A program made the translations under genes and the position numbers. The notes under the pieces are model-generated. The model was given only the letters and a program-made list of their open reading frames with translations, was not told the DNA's origin and ran no database searches. A stretch of DNA of 64,000 nt from an uncultured virus (IMG/VR IMGVR_UViG_3300000301_000004). Its lineage: Duplodnaviria; Heunggongvirae; Uroviricota; Caudoviricetes. Location: IMG/VR virus record IMGVR_UViG_3300000301_000004; one strand, written 5' to 3'. Each line of letters begins with the position of its first letter. Position 1 is the first letter of the stretch. Positions 19,412 to 39,149 of this stretch are shown here, piece after piece.

Positions 19412-20335
19412 ATGTTAGATTTATATTTTGCGGGACAAGTTACAGATCATGTAGATAAGTGCTTGTTCGATATGGGAGCCAATCATCTATTCAGTTATTT
19501 GAACGAAAGGAAAAATATTGATAGATGGATTGGCTGGATTAATCAATACGGTCGAAAAGGTAAACTATTTATTGACAGTGGTGCTTTTACTGCATGGACT
19601 AAAGGTACATATATTAATGTTGATGATTATGTTTACTTTTTAAACGACAGAGTGCAGTATATTGATTTATTTGGTCAATTGGACTGTATTCCAGGAAACA
19701 TCAGGCAAAAGCCTACACAAGCACAAGTATTAGATGCAGCTGTAAAAACATGGAAAAATTATTTGTATATGAGGGATGCTGTTTTAAATAAGGATGGCTT
19801 ACTATATACGTTCCATGTGGGTGAACCGATATGGTGTTTGCGTAGAGCCTTAGAATGGCGAGATGAAAATGGCCAACCATTAAAATATATCGCTCTTGGT
19901 GGTATGGTGGGCAAGCCTAAAGATGTACAAAAGAACTTTTTATCGTTATGTTTTGATATTATAAAAAGTTCGAGTAATCCCAATGTTAAAGTCCATGCTT
20001 TTGGAATGACTGTAAGAAAAACTTTAGTCCAATATCCAGTTACTTCTGCGGATAGTTCTTCGTGGATTCAAAGCGGGCATAATGGAGCAATTTATACTCC
20101 ATGGGGTACTATTATTATTAGTGCTCAGCAAAAGGATAAAATGGCTCACCCTTTAAATGGTAGTGCTGTAGCTTTGGAAGATTTAAAATCTTACATTAAA
20201 AGCAAGAATTTCGATTTTGAGCAGTTAATGGAAGATTATGTTCAACGCGATTTGTGGAATGTAACATTTTTGATGGATTGGGCAAAAGAATATACTTATC
20301 ATGGTGGAAAAATTATTAGGAGGCGATTATTTTGA
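19412..20335 (+). CDS. dpdA: Phage DNA 7-deazaguanine transglycosylase (TGT fold)
   Basis: FIDSGAFTAW, LDCIPG, FHVGEP, YIALGG, VHAFG, SADSSSW; heads the que/folE cluster next to the polymerase. Confidence 0.85.
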   Translation: MLDLYFAGQVTDHVDKCLFDMGANHLFSYLNERKNIDRWIGWINQYGRKGKLFIDSGAFTAWTKGTYINVDDYVYFLNDRVQYIDLFGQLDCIPGNIRQKPTQAQVLDAAVKTWKNYLYMRDAVLNKDGLLYTFHVGEPIWCLRRALEWRDENGQPLKYIALGGMVGKPKDVQKNFLSLCFDIIKSSSNPNVKVHAFGMTVRKTLVQYPVTSADSSSWIQSGHNGAIYTPWGTIIISAQQKDKMAHPLNGSAVALEDLKSYIKSKNFDFEQLMEDYVQRDLWNVTFLMDWAKEYTYHGGKIIRRRLF

Positions 20336-21018
20336 AAGCAGTTGTATTGTTGAGCGGTGGTGTTGATAGCGCTACTTGTTTAGGTATGGCAGTTGATTGT
20401 TATGGCAATAAAGAGGTAACAGCGTTATCTATTTACTACGGCCAAAAGCATGAGAAAGAATTAGCTTGTGCTAAAAAGTTAGCGGAACATTATGGTGTTC
20501 AACATATTGTTCGGGATATTAGTAGTATTATGGAATTGAGTGATTGCTGTTTATTAAAAAATAGTAAAAATGAAATTAAACATACTACCTATGCCGAACA
20601 ATTAAAGGAATTAGGTGGTGAAGGGACTGTTAGTACCTATGTACCATTTCGTAACGGCTTAATGTTATCTTCAGCGGCGTCTTTGGCTTATTCCCTCGGG
20701 GGCTGTGAAGTGTGGTATGGCGCTCATGCAGATGATGCGGCTGGTAGGGCATATCCGGACTGTACTCCTGAATTTGTGGATGCCATGCGTAAAGCAATTT
20801 TAGAAGGTACTGGCGGCCAACTTACATTAAGAGCTCCTTTGATTATGTTTAATAAAGGCGAAGTTGTTAAAGCTGGATTGTCATTGAAAGTCCCTTATAA
20901 ATTTACATGGTCTTGTTATGAGGGTGGAGAAAAACCTTGTGGAGTATGTGGTACATGTAGAGATAGAGCTCATGCTTTTGAAGTTAATGGTGTAAAAGAT
21001 CCAGCTTTGCGAGGTTAA
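20332..21018 (+). CDS. queC: 7-cyano-7-deazaguanine synthase
   Basis: LLSGGVDSAT, YGQKH, YVPFRN, YPDC, TWSCY..CGVCGTC. Confidence 0.96.
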   Translation: MKAVVLLSGGVDSATCLGMAVDCYGNKEVTALSIYYGQKHEKELACAKKLAEHYGVQHIVRDISSIMELSDCCLLKNSKNEIKHTTYAEQLKELGGEGTVSTYVPFRNGLMLSSAASLAYSLGGCEVWYGAHADDAAGRAYPDCTPEFVDAMRKAILEGTGGQLTLRAPLIMFNKGEVVKAGLSLKVPYKFTWSCYEGGEKPCGVCGTCRDRAHAFEVNGVKDPALRG

Positions 21019-21020
21019 TT

Positions 21021-21224
21021 ATGGCAAAAATGGTAGACGGTAAAACCATCAAAGAACTAGAAACAAGAGCAAAGACTGCTTTATATGCAAATGAATATAC
21101 TAATGGTAATTTATTAGTTTCTGCTGAAGTATTATTAAATCTTATTCACGAAGTAAAAGTAAAAAAATATCATAATCGTATTAAACCAGGAGGAAGAAAA
21201 TGTACACAGTTATCAAAGAATTAG
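21021..21224 (+). CDS. Hypothetical protein within que operon
   Basis: ORF track. Confidence 0.55.
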   Translation: MAKMVDGKTIKELETRAKTALYANEYTNGNLLVSAEVLLNLIHEVKVKKYHNRIKPGGRKCTQLSKN

Positions 21225-21538
21225 AAATATCTGCATCTCATTATTTAAATCTGCCTTATGAGAGTAAATGCGCTAATCTTCACGGTCATAATTGGAAAGT
21301 TAAAATTTATTGCAAAGCTAGAGAACTTTCTGATTATGGCATGGTTGAGGATTTTACACATATTAAAAAATGTGTAATGGATGTATTCGATCATCAAAGT
21401 ATTAATCAAGTTGTTCCTTTTAATCCAACAGCTGAAAATATTGCAAAATATATTTGTGATATTATTCCAACGTGTTACAGAGTAGAAGTACAAGAAAGCG
21501 AAGGGAATTTAGCAATTTATGAACAAGAAGATATATAG
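21200..21538 (+). CDS. queD: 6-carboxytetrahydropterin synthase
   Basis: SASHYL, CANLHGHNW, FDH, NPTAENIA. Confidence 0.95.
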   Translation: MYTVIKELEISASHYLNLPYESKCANLHGHNWKVKIYCKARELSDYGMVEDFTHIKKCVMDVFDHQSINQVVPFNPTAENIAKYICDIIPTCYRVEVQESEGNLAIYEQEDI

Positions 21539-22172
21539 TGTAAATGAAATGTTTTTAAGTGTGGAAGGTGAAGGAATTAGAACTGGATTTCTTTCAACTT
21601 TTGTACGCTTTAATGGCTGTAACTTATGTTGTAGTTATTGTGATACCCTTTACGCACAAGATGTTCAAGAACCAAATATGTCTTTACAGGAAATTCTTGA
21701 AAGCATTGCTAAAATTGGTTGTCATCGTGTAACTTTAACAGGCGGAGAACCATTATTTAGAGCGGGTATGAACGATCTTATTGAAGCTTTATCTTGGGGT
21801 GGGTATCATGTGAATATTGAAACAAATGGTTCTGTGCCGATTGAACCATGTTGTAGTTTGCCCGGAGTATTTGTTACAATGGATTGGAAATGTCCGAGTA
21901 GTGGTATGCTAGGTTCAATGCTTGAAAGTAATCTTAAAAAGCTCACTTATAATGATGTATTGAAATTCGTTGTTGCTACTAAAGAAGATTTAGAAGAATT
22001 TAAACGAATTTATAATATGGATTTGATTTGTACCTATGTTCTTAGCCCAGTGTATGGGCAGATTGAACCGAAAGAACTTGTTCAATTTGTTAAAGATAAT
22101 ATGCTTGAAAATACAATGGTACAAGTTCAACTTCATAAAATTATATGGAATCCGGATGAAAGAGGAGTATAA
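21519..22172 (+). CDS. queE: 7-carboxy-7-deazaguanine synthase (radical SAM)
   Basis: EMFLSVEGEG, GCNLCCSYCDT, TGGEP, IETNG, QLHKIIW. Confidence 0.95.
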   Translation: MNKKIYSVNEMFLSVEGEGIRTGFLSTFVRFNGCNLCCSYCDTLYAQDVQEPNMSLQEILESIAKIGCHRVTLTGGEPLFRAGMNDLIEALSWGGYHVNIETNGSVPIEPCCSLPGVFVTMDWKCPSSGMLGSMLESNLKKLTYNDVLKFVVATKEDLEEFKRIYNMDLICTYVLSPVYGQIEPKELVQFVKDNMLENTMVQVQLHKIIWNPDERGV

Positions 22173-22173
22173 A

Positions 22174-22752
22174 ATGGAAAATACTAAAGAACAAATGCTT
22201 ATATCCGCAGGAGAGCTTATTTTACAGGCTTTTGGAAAAGATCTTCAAGATCCTTCATTAAAGGAAACTCCTAAAAGATTTGCAAAAATGATGTTAGAGC
22301 AACTTGAGGGTGAGTTCTATTCTGATTCCGATCTTGTTAGTAAGTTTGGCAAGTGTTTTGAAACAACTGGTCATGGTATTGTAACCTGTACAAATATTCC
22401 TGTTTTTAGTCACTGTGAACATCATCTTGCATTGATGTATAATATGAATGTAAGTATTGGATATTATCCAAGAACGAAAGTAATTGGACTTTCGAAGATG
22501 GCACGTATTGCTGATATGGTTGCAAAAAGATTTCAAATTCAGGAAAGAATGGGATTTAGTATTCATCGTATTATGTCTGCTATTTTATCGACTGACAATG
22601 TAATTGTAATGATTGAAGGAGAACATTCTTGTATGACTGCAAGAGGTATTAAAAAGCCAGGAGCGGTTACAAGAACTTTGCATACTAGTGGCGTTTTTGA
22701 ATATCTTGATGAACAACAATCTTTTATTAATTTAGTAAGGAGTAGTAAATAA
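22174..22752 (+). CDS. folE: GTP cyclohydrolase I
   Basis: ETPKRFAK, SHCEHH, IGLSKMARI, QIQER, HSCMTARG. Confidence 0.95.
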   Translation: MENTKEQMLISAGELILQAFGKDLQDPSLKETPKRFAKMMLEQLEGEFYSDSDLVSKFGKCFETTGHGIVTCTNIPVFSHCEHHLALMYNMNVSIGYYPRTKVIGLSKMARIADMVAKRFQIQERMGFSIHRIMSAILSTDNVIVMIEGEHSCMTARGIKKPGAVTRTLHTSGVFEYLDEQQSFINLVRSSK

Positions 22753-32695: not shown

Positions 32696-32917
32696 ATGAA
32701 AAAGTTAACAGTAATACTATTTATATTGGTAGTTACCTTTTTAACAACTCGGCCAGTCGATTCGCCTGAAGGTTTTAAGCCAAAACCACGGCTAATCACC
32801 CAAAACGAAACACACGAATTTTACGAAGAGCCACAAACACACACTATAATTAAGGTTAACAAGCGTACTGGCGAGGCAGTCGACCTGCAAAAAACTCGTG
32901 AACAGTTATTTAAATAG
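32696..32917 (+). CDS. Small protein with N-terminal signal/TM
   Basis: RBS; followed by terminator 32912-32943. Confidence 0.65.
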   Translation: MKKLTVILFILVVTFLTTRPVDSPEGFKPKPRLITQNETHEFYEEPQTHTIIKVNKRTGEAVDLQKTREQLFK

Positions 32918-33066
32918 CCTGTATTTGCAGGCTATTTTTTTTTGCATTTTTGCCAATTACCCTAAATTTATTCATATTTTAGTTTTAACGGTTTTTAGGC
33001 TTTACAGGTATAAATATATGCGGTCACACTAAAAAACTTAATACAGGCCATTTATGAAGACGAAAG

Positions 33067-33099
33067 TTATCCACAGGCTGTGAATAAAGTTGTGGATAA
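33067..33099. promoter_or_regulatory. Cluster of three DnaA boxes
   Basis: TTATCCACA (33067), TGTGAATAA (33079, 1 mismatch), TGTGGATAA (33091). Confidence 0.7.
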
Positions 33100-33197
33100 C
33101 TTTTTTTGAAAATTTTTTCATAAAAAGTGTTGACTTTTAAATCACAATCGTTTATAATTAAGTTACAAGGTAAACAAATAATAAAGGGGGCAAAAAT

Positions 33198-33491
33198 ATG
33201 TTAACTAAAAAACAAAATATTGAATTAGGTCGGTTTGCATTGTATATCGAAAGCCATGATGAACAATTTAAATATATGTTGCTAAACCGACTGCAAACAG
33301 ATTGCAAATACTATTTAGGTTATGGCAACGGCAATGAACGCCACTTGTGGGGCGAAACTGTTGAAATGCACATCGAATATATGTACATTATATATGATAG
33401 TTTAAAAATTAAGCCAGAATGGCTAACCGAGCAACAAATTAAAGTTTATAGCGATTTAATGTTACAAATTAAAAATGATAAAAATTTTTAA
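33198..33491 (+). CDS. LPD11-like protein
   Basis: YMLLNRLQTDCKYYLGYG...HLW...KPEWLT; own promoter at 33130. Confidence 0.7.
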   Translation: MLTKKQNIELGRFALYIESHDEQFKYMLLNRLQTDCKYYLGYGNGNERHLWGETVEMHIEYMYIIYDSLKIKPEWLTEQQIKVYSDLMLQIKNDKNF

Positions 33492-33559
33492 AAAGTGCTT
33501 GACTTTATAAGCAAAATCGTTTATAATAAGTATAACAAATAAACAAGGGGGTCATAAAA

Positions 33560-34216
33560 ATGACTGAACAAAAATTAAACAAACTAGAACAACAAATTAT
33601 TAAATTACTGGAGTTGGCGAACAAAAATACCAACCAAGCCGAGGCCATTGCAGCGGCCGCTAAAGCCCAGGAATTAATGGCAAAGTACAACATTAAATTA
33701 CAAAACATTAGCAAAAAACCTGCAAATATCGTGGCTGAATTTGCAGTGAATGCAAGGGGTAAAAGTTACCGTTTTGCGCTGGCAACAATTTTAGCTAATA
33801 ATTATGGTGTAAAATTAGTATGGGCTGAAAAAATGATTCCAGTATTTTATGGTTACGAAAATAACGCTAAAACGGTTACCAAAATTTACGAATGGTTATG
33901 GCAGGCCATTCACCGTATGGCCGATAGTTACCAAACGAAAATTTGGAAACAGGGTAACGGAGTTAAAGGCGTGTATAACAGTTTTGTCGATGGTTTTTTA
34001 GTAGGTTTAAAAAAGGAGCTTGACAAAAACTGCACGGCTTTAAAAATTACAGTTGCCGAGGAAGTAAATACCGAGTTCGACAAATTTATGGCCGAAAAAG
34101 GGGCAGGCACTTTTAAAACTAAAAAGCGTAACGCTCCTGTTGATACATGTGCATTTTTGCAAGGAGTAGTTGAAGGTTCGACTATTATGCAACGTAAACA
34201 AGTGGAGGCTAAATAA
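33560..34216 (+). CDS. DUF2786-domain protein
   Basis: IIKLLELA....EAIAAAAKAQELMAKYNI; own promoter at 33499. Confidence 0.75.
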   Translation: MTEQKLNKLEQQIIKLLELANKNTNQAEAIAAAAKAQELMAKYNIKLQNISKKPANIVAEFAVNARGKSYRFALATILANNYGVKLVWAEKMIPVFYGYENNAKTVTKIYEWLWQAIHRMADSYQTKIWKQGNGVKGVYNSFVDGFLVGLKKELDKNCTALKITVAEEVNTEFDKFMAEKGAGTFKTKKRNAPVDTCAFLQGVVEGSTIMQRKQVEAK

Positions 34217-34956
34217 TGTTAACTATGTTGCTAGTATCATGCGTCATTGTGTTTGGCGCATGGTACTTAATTAATAACGAATATGCTTTTACAAAATTAT
34301 GTGGTTTTATTGTAGTAACAATTATTTATATTGCAGGTTTCCCTATTTTCATGCTGCTCAATTGGTATAAAATGTTAAAAAGGTTTAATAACACATTTAG
34401 GAAGGATGACTAATATGAAAAATGGTGTACATTTACAAGGTTTTAAGGGCTATTTTGAAGGTACTAAAGCAATTGATATTAAAGTTGGTGACGTATTAGT
34501 TTGGAATTATGGATTATTAAGCAAAGTTATTAGTAAAGAAATGTCACCTTCAGGTAAAAGTGTTTATTTAATTACACAGCCATTTACTAGAACAATTCAT
34601 GGTAATGTTGAATACGATATGTTACGTCGAAATCGATATAACATCAATACTTTATTAGTCACTAATCCATTAATGCCATTATAGGAGGTTTAATTATGAT
34701 TATTGGAAATGATATAGTATTAAATGTTGAGGACTTTTTAGGAGCGATGATTAATAGTTATTTACTGTTTGCTCCTTATGCCGACCTTTCATATGATGAA
34801 ATAGCCCAATTACTTGAAGAGTATTTTTGTGATTATATAGCACAATATGGTATTGTAATATTAAAACTATATACGAAAAAAACCGAAAAAGGAATATTTA
34901 TTGATTATAAATATAATGGCATTAAAAAGTGTTATATTTATACCCAACAATTTTAA
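34216..34956 (+). CDS. Three small hypothetical ORFs (34216-34413, 34406-34684, 34696-34956)
   Basis: Coupled ORFs in track. Confidence 0.55.
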
Positions 34957-35062
34957 AAAAGTTTAAAAAAAAGTATTGACTTTGCTATAAAACTATGTTA
35001 TAATTTATTTAACAGGTAAAGCAAAGTCAATACTTGTTAAAAACAAAAAAGGGGTGTACATT

Positions 35063-35365
35063 ATGAACTTATACGAATTATTTAAAAAATTTGAAACTGA
35101 ATTTTTGGCAGGCCACGAAAAAATTAAAACAGAGCTTGACTTCGAACTTTTCGTCGGCAAACTGAGTGAACAAATTTTAGGTGATGTATATAGCCTTGAC
35201 ACTGTTTATAAAACTGGGGGTAATCATATTGAAGTCACTGCCGTTGGCTATGGTTACAGTTTTGAAGTTGAATATCATATTACTAAACATAAACTATTAA
35301 AGTTAGCAGTAATCAATACACTTTTCGGCGACCGTCGAATTACTTATGCAGTTGAATATGATTAA
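35063..35365 (+). CDS. Hypothetical early protein
   Basis: Promoter TTGACT-17-TATAAT at 34976; AAGGGG RBS. Confidence 0.7.
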   Translation: MNLYELFKKFETEFLAGHEKIKTELDFELFVGKLSEQILGDVYSLDTVYKTGGNHIEVTAVGYGYSFEVEYHITKHKLLKLAVINTLFGDRRITYAVEYD

Positions 35366-35953
35366 GTCCGTTTTTAAATTAAGTACGTTTTTAAAATATA
35401 CAAATTTTTAAATTGTTGAAATTTTTAGGCTGGCAAGGGGTATATATAAACCCTTTACCAGCCTATTTATTATTAATGTAGGTACATTTTCGTTGGCGTT
35501 AAAATGGTTATTCGTATAAAAAATAGCCCTAATTGCAAGGGCTATATATTAGTTATCTGCAGAATGTAAAATTCGGCAAAATTTTAAATTTAAAAATCAT
35601 TAGCAATTAAGAAAATAGCTAAAATAACAATATTAAGAATATAGGAATAACTCTTAATTTGAAATCATTATCAAAGAAGGTAGCATTGCATTTAGGGCAG
35701 CAAACGGTTTAGGGCAGCATCGTATATTTGTACTTAACAGCAGCTTTACCCTATTAGTAATTATTACTAATTTGCTTTATACATTGGCATATTTAAACTA
35801 TACCACTTCGATTTAAATTTGTAAATAGGTTACAATAAAAAAAGATGCTAAAATTTTTTATAAAAAAGTATTGCAATTTTACAAGCAAAGGTGTATAATA
35901 TAGTTAAGGTAAAAAGTTACCTACAAATAAATAAAAAAAGGGTGTGTTTATTT

Positions 35954-36457
35954 ATGGCAAAAGTGGCAAAAACCAAAAATAGTGGTACTTACAAAAATTT
36001 AGTAGGGGCAACCAATTATTACAATGCAGTTTTGCAAAACCTGCAAAACCTACAAATACCAGTTAACAAAATTAATAATATGCAATATGTATTAAATGCA
36101 GTAAATATTGCAACCTACAACACTAACCCGGCGGCCTTGCAATACAACCCAATAGTTACCCAAACAAGTAATGGTACACAGTACACTTTTAACTACATAC
36201 AGTGGCAAATGTACCCACAGTTACTTATCGATATTGGTATTACTACCGATATAGTAATAGTTATTAATAACAACGGTGTAGTAAATGTAAACCAGTTGCA
36301 AATGGTATACGAGTGCAGTTATGCACCGGCGTTTATTAGTAATGTGTTGCAAATACCGTATGGTGGCTATTTAAATACTACTTTTAATAATGCACCAGTG
36401 CAAATAGTAAATTATGCTAGCGAGGGCTTTTGGCAAATAGGCATTGGTAACAATTAA
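35954..36457 (+). CDS. Asn/Gln-rich orphan protein in GA-free zone
   Basis: Promoter TTGCAA-17-TATAAT at 35871; terminator 36469-36503; only 4 D/E and no R in 167 aa. Confidence 0.75.
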   Translation: MAKVAKTKNSGTYKNLVGATNYYNAVLQNLQNLQIPVNKINNMQYVLNAVNIATYNTNPAALQYNPIVTQTSNGTQYTFNYIQWQMYPQLLIDIGITTDIVIVINNNGVVNVNQLQMVYECSYAPAFISNVLQIPYGGYLNTTFNNAPVQIVNYASEGFWQIGIGNN

Positions 36458-36575
36458 AAATAATTATTAATAAGGTAGGCAAAAACCTACCTTATTTTTT
36501 TTTGTAAAAGTGCTTGCAAAATTATGCTTTTTATGGTATAATAAAGGTAACAAATAAACAAGGGGGTAAATACCT

Positions 36576-36899
36576 ATGCTAACCAATTATGTAAACAATT
36601 TAAGCAATTTAGTTAACCAATTTGTACCAATTTACCAAACAATACTCGATACTATTAATAACCCTAACGAAATTAGTAATATTTACCAATTACTCGATAA
36701 TATTACCGAGGAGTTAAATGCAAACGGTAACGAGTGCGAGCTCGAGTTTATGGCTAATAACAAATTTATACTAACAACATATACTGGTAATGGTAATTGC
36801 ATTATAAATGTAATGCCCGGCGGCGCCAATATTAGTTGCAGCGTGGGTATATGTGGCACTGCAAATTTACTTTATACCGATACATATAATTTTTATTAA
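36576..36899 (+). CDS. Asn-rich orphan protein in GA-free zone
   Basis: Promoter TTGCAA-17-TATAAT at 36514; AAGGGGG RBS; terminator 36907-36933. Confidence 0.75.
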   Translation: MLTNYVNNLSNLVNQFVPIYQTILDTINNPNEISNIYQLLDNITEELNANGNECELEFMANNKFILTTYTGNGNCIINVMPGGANISCSVGICGTANLLYTDTYNFY

Positions 36900-36984
36900 T
36901 AATTTGCCCCTTGCAAAAGGGGTATTTTTTTTTGGCTAAAAACAGGCAAAAAAATAACCTGCAAAATTGCAGGTTATTAATTTT

Positions 36985-37251
36985 TTAAACAATGCAAACG
37001 CCAACAAAAACAATATAGCCATTTTTATTAGTACGCCAATTTAAACAATAGCAATTATTATAGTTAGGGTGTTTTACTGTTATACTAAAATTGTTGCGTT
37101 TTGGTTTGCCATAAAATTTTAGTGTTAAAACCCTAAAACCAAGCGCTTTAACATACTGCAACAATACAGCACTTGTAATTTTAACGCCATAATTTAAATT
37201 GTGGCAATTTAATTGCGCAAAATGTTTGTACAAATATTTACTAACTTGCAT
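36985..37251 (-). CDS. Basic orphan protein with no Asp/Glu; the only independently promoted minus-strand gene recognised
   Basis: Minus-strand TTGTAA-17-TATAAT (37310-37282), AAGGGGG RBS, hairpin terminator 36948-36979. Confidence 0.7.
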   Translation of the reverse strand: MQVSKYLYKHFAQLNCHNLNYGVKITSAVLLQYVKALGFRVLTLKFYGKPKRNNFSITVKHPNYNNCYCLNWRTNKNGYIVFVGVCIV

Positions 37252-38589
37252 ATTAAATACCCCCTTGTTTATTATGGTTTTATTATAACATACTTGCTTG
37301 TAAATTACAATATACAATATTAAAAAATTACAAGCAAAATATGTAAACATATTTTATAAAATGATGTAAAAGTAATAAAAAATATAATAAAAATAGCGTA
37401 TTTTGGCAAATTAGTAAATTGGCAATAGGCTTTATAGGCATATAAATTGGCTATAAAAGGTTTTTGCTTGCAAAGGTATAAATAATAGGGCAGGGTAAAA
37501 AAGTATTAATACAGGCAAAATTTGGCGGCGGCGTAGTAAGTACAAACGTATTTTAGTGACTATTGAAAATATTAAATAATAAATAACAATAATAGTAATA
37601 ATACAACAAACAATAACACAGAATAATTAGCAAACAATATAAATAGCAATAATTACCAACAAGCAATAAAAAAGATTAAAAAGCCAGTATTTATGCAGAT
37701 TGCAGGTAAATAAGCAAATATAATTAGCTAGTAAAATAAGAGTAATAGGAATTAATATTAATAGTAATAATAATGCTGTTTAATAACAAATATTAGTAAG
37801 GATAATGAACTCTAATAATACTATATAAAATTTAAGCCGCCGCGCTGTGTAAAAATTGTTAGGTTTTAATAATATATACAATATAGAAAATACTACAATA
37901 ATAAATAATATACCTATAAATAATACATATATAAAGAGCTTTTAAACAAGTAAATATACCATATAAGTAGCTATTAGATATTTATTAATAACATACCATA
38001 TATGCCAACATAAATAATATACCATTAGCTATTTACCAATAATACATACAATGTGGCAATATACAAGATATAGTAACATAAACAATGTGGTAATATGGGA
38101 AATATAGTGTTTAAGGGCTACAAACAACATATACATATAAGGATTTAATACTATTTTTGCCGCTGCATGATAAGCACAAGCTCATTATTAGTAACAATTA
38201 CTGATTATGAAGCCTTATTAATATATAATATATGTATATATACAATATATACCATAATACAAGCCATGCAAACAAGCAATATATTATAAGCAATAGCCAT
38301 TATTAATTAAAAAGCCAGTGTTTATGCCATTTGGCGGTAAATAATAAATGAATATTATTAGTAATATAGATGATTATGAAGTATAGACAAATAGTAAAAG
38401 TGTATTATTAGTATATATACAAAATAATACCTTACTATTAATTAGCATAATAAGCTAATAGCAATAGCTATTGATAAGCATAAGCAACTAGATGCCCTTA
38501 CCATGTTATTAATCTTCATAATTAATACCCCCAGGAGTCCGTTTTGAAGATGTGGCCTACCACCCACCCCTACCATAATACATCTCCAT

Positions 38590-38807
38590 TAATGGATGAT
38601 TTTCCATAATCAAAAATACAGACTCCCTATAGAGTGATTTCTATCAATCAAAAATACAGACCCCTATAGAGTGATTTTCCATAATCAAAAAATATACCCC
38701 CTTAATGGATGATTTCTACCAATCAAAAACACAAGCCACGTAAAACCATTTAAGGAGTTAAATCATAAAATCTAAAAGCAAAAATACAGACCCTTAATGG
38801 ACGATTT
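38590..38807. repeat. ~38-bp-period repeat array with TGATT-N6-AATCA palindromes
   Basis: Palindrome at 38597, 38635, 38672, 38710 plus partial unit at ~38780. Confidence 0.85.
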
Positions 38808-38826
38808 ATGTCGTTAAAAATAATTG

Positions 38827-38855
38827 TTGACAAATATGTTAGATAGCATTATAAT
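38827..38855 (+). promoter_or_regulatory. Consensus promoter for 39-45 kb small-gene array
   Basis: TTGACA-17-TATAAT. Confidence 0.8.
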
Positions 38856-38990
38856 AAACGCATAGCCGCAAAATAGGGCTAAAAACTGTAAATAAAATGT
38901 TAGGAGTTGGGAAAATGCCTTAATGAAAACAGTACGTAAACGGCCGTAAAAAATTTTTTAATGTAATTATATGAAAGGAGTTTAAAAACA

Positions 38991-39149
38991 ATGAACAAAG
39001 AGTTTGTAGAGATTATCAACAGGTTAAGGGCAATTTTACAGGATTCATGGGTAAATGAATTGCCGGATAATGAAAAAATAGCAGTAAATTTTAATAAGTC
39101 AGAATTAAAATTGATATTGAATTGTATGTATAAAGAAGAATCAAATTAG
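38991..39149 (+). CDS. 52-aa hypothetical protein (not in track)
   Basis: AAGGAG RBS; MNKEFVEIINRLRAIL... Confidence 0.55.
   Translation: MNKEFVEIINRLRAILQDSWVNELPDNEKIAVNFNKSELKLILNCMYKEESN

Follow-up and report, generated by a model that had tools for sequence, protein, structure and literature searches.

The locus considered here raises a single question: why should three small genes and the promoter-like sites before them hold almost none of the dinucleotide GA, in a phage genome that is otherwise full of it? The window—the whole stretch of DNA that was analysed, 64,000 nucleotides long, to which all positions refer—comprises bases 1–64000 of a 67,495-base contig of 32% G+C. The ends of this contig overlap by 54 bases, and the 67-kb assembly is thus circular. 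The initial annotation, made from the sequence alone, had proposed that promoters, Shine–Dalgarno sites, and terminators in the zone are rewritten without GA and that the constraint acts on the nucleic acid.

The phage and its host

The virus is a gut myophage: its genome carries a replication module and encodes a Terminase_3 terminase and a contractile tail. Because relatives of its capsid protein (43%–68% identical; six loci) sit in Lachnospiraceae, Clostridiales, Eubacteriales, Peptostreptococcaceae, and other Bacillota assemblies, its host is likely to be a member of the Bacillota. Beside the tail-fibre genes, a reverse transcriptase gene and a small adjoining gene (425–1721) are consistent with a diversity-generating retroelement.

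DNA modification genes

A DpdA-like transglycosylase is encoded on the plus strand at 19412–20335 and is followed on the same strand (20332–22752) by the preQ0 synthesis genes queC, queD, queE, and folE. The DpdA matches PHROG 887 (E = 1e-44), matches the PADLOC DpdA profile weakly (E = 2e-4), and has no match in Pfam. It is 39% identical to the protein of Dp-1, 38% to that of Flasso, 31% to that of JenP1, 29% to that of Iggy, and 28% to that of CAjan, with the invariant D55-S56 and D214-S215 kept in all six aligned proteins. Together, dpdA, folE, queD, queE, and queC form the gene set of dPreQ0 DNA modification as found in CAjan and Iggy; no QueF, ArcS, or DpdM is named among the 100 proteins of the window (bases 1–64000), many of whose genes have no known function.

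In the available text on these phages, Iggy DpdA follows a strict GA motif with 97% of sites modified, in a genome with 1091-bp terminal repeats (PMC10484667), and CAjan is modified at GA and GGC, the level at TGA being slightly lower than at AGA, CGA, and GGA (PMC7544227). Dp-1 carries dPreQ1 at 1.7% of its G (PMC6884629). By analogy with Iggy and CAjan, which supply both the modified base and its motif, DpdA and the preQ0 enzymes would be likely to swap the G of [AGT]GA words for 7-cyano-7-deazaguanine.

Purging of [AGT]GA from the zone

Counted on both strands, the strict zone (35845–37362), a block of 1.5 kb, contains 17 GA against 159 expected, and these occur only as CGA apart from one GGA: observed and expected counts are 0 and 56 for AGA, 0 and 56 for TGA, 1 and 24 for GGA, and 16 and 24 for CGA. 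A zone rewritten without any GA, as first annotated, is therefore not what is found; avoidance concerns [AGT]GA and not GA in every context. GGC was dropped as a possible co-target, since it is enriched 2.8-fold in the zone.

The surviving sites follow a rule. All 13 GA on the sense strand are the in-frame starts of Asp or Glu codons and 12 of them are preceded by C, as against 88 of 725 such codons in 11 reference genes (p = 2e-10); the four antisense GA arise where the C before an Asp or Glu codon completes TCGA. Every one of the 16 CGA in the zone is thus tied to an Asp or Glu codon. With the three protein sequences left unchanged and codons sampled according to the codon usage of the phage (2000 recodings per gene), the mean numbers of [AGT]GA were 26.9, 21.6, and 11.4 for ORF1, ORF2, and ORF3, against 0, 1, and 0 observed, and none of the 2000 recodings of any gene was as low. 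TC is purged from the sense strand too (4 versus about 34 in recodings). Five relatives together show 149 distinct variant alleles, of which one creates [AGT]GA where 39 would be expected, albeit the alleles are linked rather than independent, so that a P value from them overstates the case. Selection is removing [AGT]GA from the DNA of the zone, and is still doing so.

It is barely credible that local mutation bias, or a constraint on mRNA such as a GA-specific RNA toxin (CmdT is one), produced this pattern without selection on DNA. The use of Asn and Gln in place of Asp and Glu is what G-to-A and G-to-C changes would yield; however, C has been gained before 12 of 13 Asp or Glu codons, against the AT bias (p = 2e-10), and a constraint on mRNA would account neither for the purging of TC from the sense strand nor for the rewriting of untranscribed −35 elements. 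Protein-composition, mutation-bias, and mRNA-level readings are largely refuted by the recoding, C-before-Asp/Glu, and TC results. The claim that the constraint acts on the nucleic acid, and is no artefact of protein composition, is accordingly upheld by fixed-protein recoding, by both strands, and by the −35 elements.

Three self-contained cassettes

The zone consists of three cassettes, each with its own promoter and terminator, the second and third being convergent. On the plus strand, ORF1 (35954–36457; 167 aa, 2.4% Asp+Glu, and 25.6% Asn+Gln) is preceded by a G-run Shine–Dalgarno-like site at 35938–35942 and followed by the terminator-like hairpin T1 (36469–36504). ORF2 (36576–36899, plus strand; 107 aa), in which C precedes eight of nine Asp or Glu codons, lies between a similar G-run site (36560–36566) and hairpin T2 (36905–36933). 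A two-way terminator-like hairpin, T3 (36953–36978), separates it from ORF3 on the minus strand (36985–37251; G-run site at 37260–37266), which encodes 88 aa with no Asp or Glu, contains neither GA nor TC, and is 59% identical in the sister genome G001.

Shine–Dalgarno type is not a marker of the zone, because the G-run sites proposed for it, while present, also precede genes outside: the early genes at 33198, 33560, and 35063, as well as 19412 (dpdA), 27394, 39161, 42527, and 44165. All three zone hairpins lack GA and TC, as had been noted, but so do both of the neighbouring hairpins checked (32912 and 35523). Both features were dropped as zone markers, and the DNA-level argument stands on the −35 hexamers and gene bodies instead.

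The predicted structures of ORF1 (alpha/beta, pLDDT 89.0) and ORF3 (two helices and four strands, pLDDT 87.5) are confident. Fold searches gave best hits within background for both (ORF1: Z 6.3, rmsd 3.9, 71 aligned; ORF3: Z 6.5, rmsd 3.0, 80 aligned), neither protein matched a known transcription factor, and neither has a match in the Atlas. ORF1–3 have no significant PHROG, Pfam, or PADLOC family, with only weak, sub-threshold Fumble and ZorC matches for ORF1 in profile searches, and Rfam has no match in 35300–39000. As the confident models match nothing significant, ORF1 and ORF3 do not decide the mechanism. Homologue searches with the zone proteins appear to return only variants from this clade.

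The database proteins P0075, P0111, and P0195 fuse parts of gene 35063, ORF1, and ORF2 (35954–36899), which suggests that the cassettes may recombine with each other at short shared words. Paralogy of ORF1 and ORF2 is not claimed despite a profile match of 85.6%, because the alignment behind it (A7) held the ORF1/ORF2 chimera P0195 and pairwise BLAST gives E = 2.8.

Promoter-like sites

The six promoter coordinates first proposed are all borne out: TTGCAA on the plus strand at 35871 and 36514 and TTGTAA on the minus strand at 37310, within the zone, and TTGACT at 33130, 33499, and 34976, outside it. AAAAGT does lie 1–2 nt before the hexamer at five of these sites and is absent at 37310. Each zone site has a 17-nt spacer and TATAAT, and four GA-free versions of the −35 element occur across the clade: P1 (35871–35899, plus strand) has TTGCAA; P2 (36514–36542, plus strand) has TTGCAA here, TTGCAT in L025 and L028, and TTGCTA in G001; and P3 (37282–37310, minus strand) has TTGTAA here and TTGCAA in G001 and the second sister genome, G009.

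The genome holds 24 TTG-N16–18-TATAAT sites, of which 13 gene-facing sites were kept; the 11 dropped all lie within genes, two in the sense direction (1357, TTGGTT; 57962, TTGGCG) and nine in the antisense direction. TTGA opens the −35 element at 10 of 10 gene-facing sites outside the zone versus none of three inside it (Fisher p = 0.0035). The promoter scan by itself does not rise above chance (40 sites versus 46 in shuffled sequence). The zone sites combine the features of sigma-70/sigma-A promoters: a −35 element, 17 nt, TATAAT, a downstream gene with a ribosome-binding site, and conservation.

Flanks, repeats, and genome ends

The left edge of the strict zone lies 27 nt upstream of the −35 element of P1, and the right edge 53 nt upstream of that of P3; in G009, the edges lie 75 and 240 nt upstream of the outer −35 elements. 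With its edges just beyond these elements, the zone covers the transcription units; the non-coding flank is purged less. To its left, an outer tier (32751–35500) of early cassettes with the three TTGACT promoters avoids AGA, which occurs nine times against 73 in the preceding 2.75 kb; TGA is not avoided (75 versus 82), which fits TTGACT being tolerated there. Among the products of the cassettes of this tier (33198–34216) are a protein with an LPD11 domain and one of DUF2786-DUF7168 type. On the right, the non-coding, AT-rich flank (37363–38500) has GA at 0.27 of expected, against 0.11 in the genes. The depletion is thus asymmetric, fading gradually leftward over about 3 kb and stopping abruptly at 38.5 kb, beside five degenerate copies of a repeat with a 38-bp period (38575–38820, plus strand).

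Such repeats, which are iteron- or terminase-site-like, also occur in G001, and their copy number varies in runs X6 and X7. Three DnaA-box matches (two TTATCCACA and one TTATTCACA), again shared with G001, lie at 33067–33099, a short way upstream of the first early promoter; the cluster is a possible host-DnaA origin or control site. Contig depth at 35600–38400 is below that of the flanks in most of eight runs, which may reflect AT content or strain variation. Coverage of the zone is thin in all eight. A step in depth across the zone (31.5 to 46.1) appears in one of the eight (X6) and in none of the other seven, contig depths being unable to show genome ends.

An improbable explanation is that a phage or host protein needs unmarked DNA here for genome entry, the start of replication, or packaging, so that the promoters are free of GA only through their location. 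The asymmetry with its abrupt edge at the repeat and the DnaA-box matches at the left edge would suit it, as would Iggy, whose dip is mostly intergenic and which has terminal repeats; the position of these was not found in the text of PMC10484667 or in the one supplement searched. Set against this, the non-coding flank is less purged than the genes, and GA is present in the repeats as well as in two of the three DnaA boxes.

Sister genomes, controls, and other DpdA phages

G001 and G009, whose DpdA is 90% identical, possess the same zone, and the lowest 1-kb GA ratio is 0.10 in G000, 0.05 in G001, and 0.07 in G009. The zone of G009 contains no AGA, one GGA, one TGA, and 12 CGA, and has three TTGCAA promoters. 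Cassettes are not invariably kept: L029 is without that of ORF2, ORF3 has lost 153 nt in frame in L024, and G001 retains only an end fragment of ORF1, behind a TTGACT promoter; part of this variation could stem from misassembly.

Twelve records (nine complete genomes and three fragments) that share the DUF2786 gene and have no dpdA match served as controls; these are distant phages, no close dpdA-negative relative having been found. AGA in the DUF2786 gene stands at 0.04–0.09 of expected in this clade versus 1.08–1.64 in 12 of 12 dpdA-negative homologues, and the lowest 1-kb GA ratio in all nine complete genomes is 0.67–0.79, that is, no dip. A weaker dip (<0.6) is seen in five of 16 other DpdA genomes (Iggy 0.36, JenP1 0.45, Vid5 0.52, BA3 0.52, and Flasso 0.58), the remaining 11 reaching 0.62–0.80, near or within the control range. 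Dips below 0.6 thus occur in 8 of 19 DpdA-encoding genomes versus none of nine without DpdA. Taken with the gene set and the motif of Iggy, these controls make it very probable that [AGT]GA is the phage's own modification target.

The dips of Iggy, JenP1, and Flasso lie at or beside small early-type genes. That of Iggy, at 59.75–60.75 kb (35 GA versus 97 expected), is mostly intergenic, in the stretch that separates the first early gene from the end of the record. Its other short GA-free islands were not counted, because most look, by eye, like Ala/Gln/Pro-rich coding stretches. In their lowest windows, which fall where the early region begins, both Iggy (MN029011.1, 59750–60628; L110) and JenP1 (KP719132.1, 55214–55700; L111) are depleted of GA more than of any other dinucleotide. 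The first early promoter-like sites of Iggy have TTGACG and TTGGAT. Dp-1 keeps TTGACT early promoters and has no dip (lowest ratio 0.72). TTGCAN promoter-like sites seen by eye in JenP1 and CAjan failed a relaxed scan and were not used. In G003 (L050–L057), a 154-kb DpdA-encoding phage without a strong dip (0.63), promoter-like sites are mostly TTGATT, TTGAAT, and TTGATA. The DpdA-encoding Bacillus phage Flasso (MZ357961.1, 101027–105345; L112) has seven promoter-like sites in tandem, each TTTACA-17-TATAAT, and a GA-poor 80-aa gene at 102229–102471; TTTACA, though, is also common among natural −35 elements.

A reader that has nothing to do with DpdA, namely a TC-specific DNA enzyme of the host (deaminase or ADP-ribosyltransferase type) acting on the first-exposed DNA, would see the same word, because TC and GA are identical on double-stranded DNA. 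This is very improbable: dips below 0.6 are confined to DpdA-encoding genomes, including Iggy with its measured strict GA motif, and the enrichment of GGC in the zone fits a motif of the Iggy type.

A possible immediate-early island

The best reading, to be held tentatively, is that the zone is an unmodified immediate-early island on which host RNA polymerase can start. The three cassettes, kept free of [AGT]GA, would likely be the first that the host sigma-A enzyme transcribes, the entering DNA being unmarked at these positions; the TTGAC promoters would then come into use through the cassette products or after an initial round of replication. CGA and TGA would be modified more weakly than AGA. 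On this reading, modified templates would be transcribed poorly. In the available portions of PMC4838386, 7-ethynyl- and 7-vinyl-deazaguanine almost abolish transcription by the B. subtilis and E. coli polymerases at initiation, an effect attributed to the −35 element; the B. subtilis enzyme gave lower yields, no pausing or elongation block was seen, and the templates had all G substituted with a synthetic analogue rather than preQ0 at GA. A block of sigma factor by deazaguanines has been raised before and set aside because the recognition sequence is AT-rich (PMC6884629, in part).

The zone edges, the rewritten −35 elements, and these analogue data fit initiation by host polymerase on unmarked DNA, and the TTTACA early promoters of Flasso and the state of Dp-1 (few G modified, TTGACT kept, no dip) were counted in its favour. 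Several observations count against it. Whole gene bodies are purged, at a cost in Asp and Glu, which is hard to square with the lack of any elongation block in the parts of PMC4838386 consulted. Ten TTGA promoters, those of the replication genes included, must still work from parental DNA, which this reading explains poorly. Iggy keeps an early TTGACG with 97% of its GA modified; in CAjan, CGA is modified no less than TGA; and Dp-1, with the closest DpdA, modifies few G. The 11 of 16 DpdA genomes without a clear dip, and the loss or deletion of zone cassettes in L029, L024, and G001, weigh on the same side, as does the lack of a match to a known transcription factor for ORF1 and ORF3.

The main rival, itself doubtful although it merits serious weight, is that a modification-dependent host defence (a glycosylase like Dag1 or a type IV nuclease like GrwAB) reads the mark and breaks down the DNA at each marked base; the island would then escape whole, as a fragment with promoters of its own, and would supply counter-defence proteins. 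This would explain the removal of every site from gene bodies and on both strands. The cassettes are small and self-promoted, and they vary, fuse, and drop out, as those of anti-defence arrays do. Terminases of the Terminase_3 type usually package by the headful, and the presence of one here is a point against this rival, as are the lack of a significant family match for any zone protein and the state of the remaining 65 kb, whose abundant GA would expose it to destruction if entry were not staged or infections did not cooperate. Defences of the needed type do exist: GrwAB (PMC12137116) and Dag1 (bioRxiv 2025.10.29.685425) act against phages with deazaguanine in their DNA, and dpdA mutants evade them, albeit both are shown, in the available text, in Proteobacteria only.

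There is also a broader proposal, which is unlikely as a whole: hypermodifying phages would encode in their sequence a bootstrap switch, in which an unmodified island with rewritten promoters and acidic residues removed expresses the new-fold ORF1–3; these would license host RNA polymerase on the modified genome or neutralise modification-sensing defence, and the tiers of avoidance (AGA, then GGA, TGA, and CGA) would mirror the target preference of DpdA.

Relation to known systems

Modification by DpdA was already known. A literature search, with most subscription papers outside its reach, found no paper describing motif-free islands; term searches of the available text of PMC10484667 and PMC7544227 turned up nothing on depleted regions or on promoters, and PMC10516641, the accessible part of PMC8594841, and PMC11008142 added nothing on motif-free islands.

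What appears to be new here is a motif-free, presumed early island with a clean CGA exception and natural matched promoters. The locus displays a strong local cost of the GA word, which suggests that modification motifs may be predictable from genomes alone. The matched pair AAAAGTA-TTGACT and AAAAGTA-TTGCAA allows a direct test of the sigma-factor block, and ORF1–3 are uncharacterised candidates for transcription takeover or counter-defence.

The first-step regions of T5 and T7 and SPO1-type arrays are self-promoted cassettes read by host polymerase that avoid host restriction sites. The zone resembles these pre-early or first-step-transfer regions and host-takeover arrays in its short self-promoted cassettes and its local avoidance of a DNA word; it differs in that the word avoided is likely the phage's own modification target. 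With the synthetic 7-deazaguanine templates of PMC4838386 (available text), it would share a linear substituent at position 7 of G that blocks bacterial promoters; in those templates, however, all G were replaced, the substituent was ethynyl rather than cyano, and elongation was unaffected. Dp-1 has the closest DpdA and a similar set of replication genes; its points of difference are the presence of QueF, TTGACT retained at early promoters, and a genome in which GA shows no dip. Iggy and CAjan share with it dpdA, folE, queC, queD, and queE and the depleted word GA, and Iggy also a GA dip. Unlike both, this is a Bacillota-type myophage whose DpdA is only 28%–29% identical to theirs, with a near-total purge extending over three genes and an exception for CGA.
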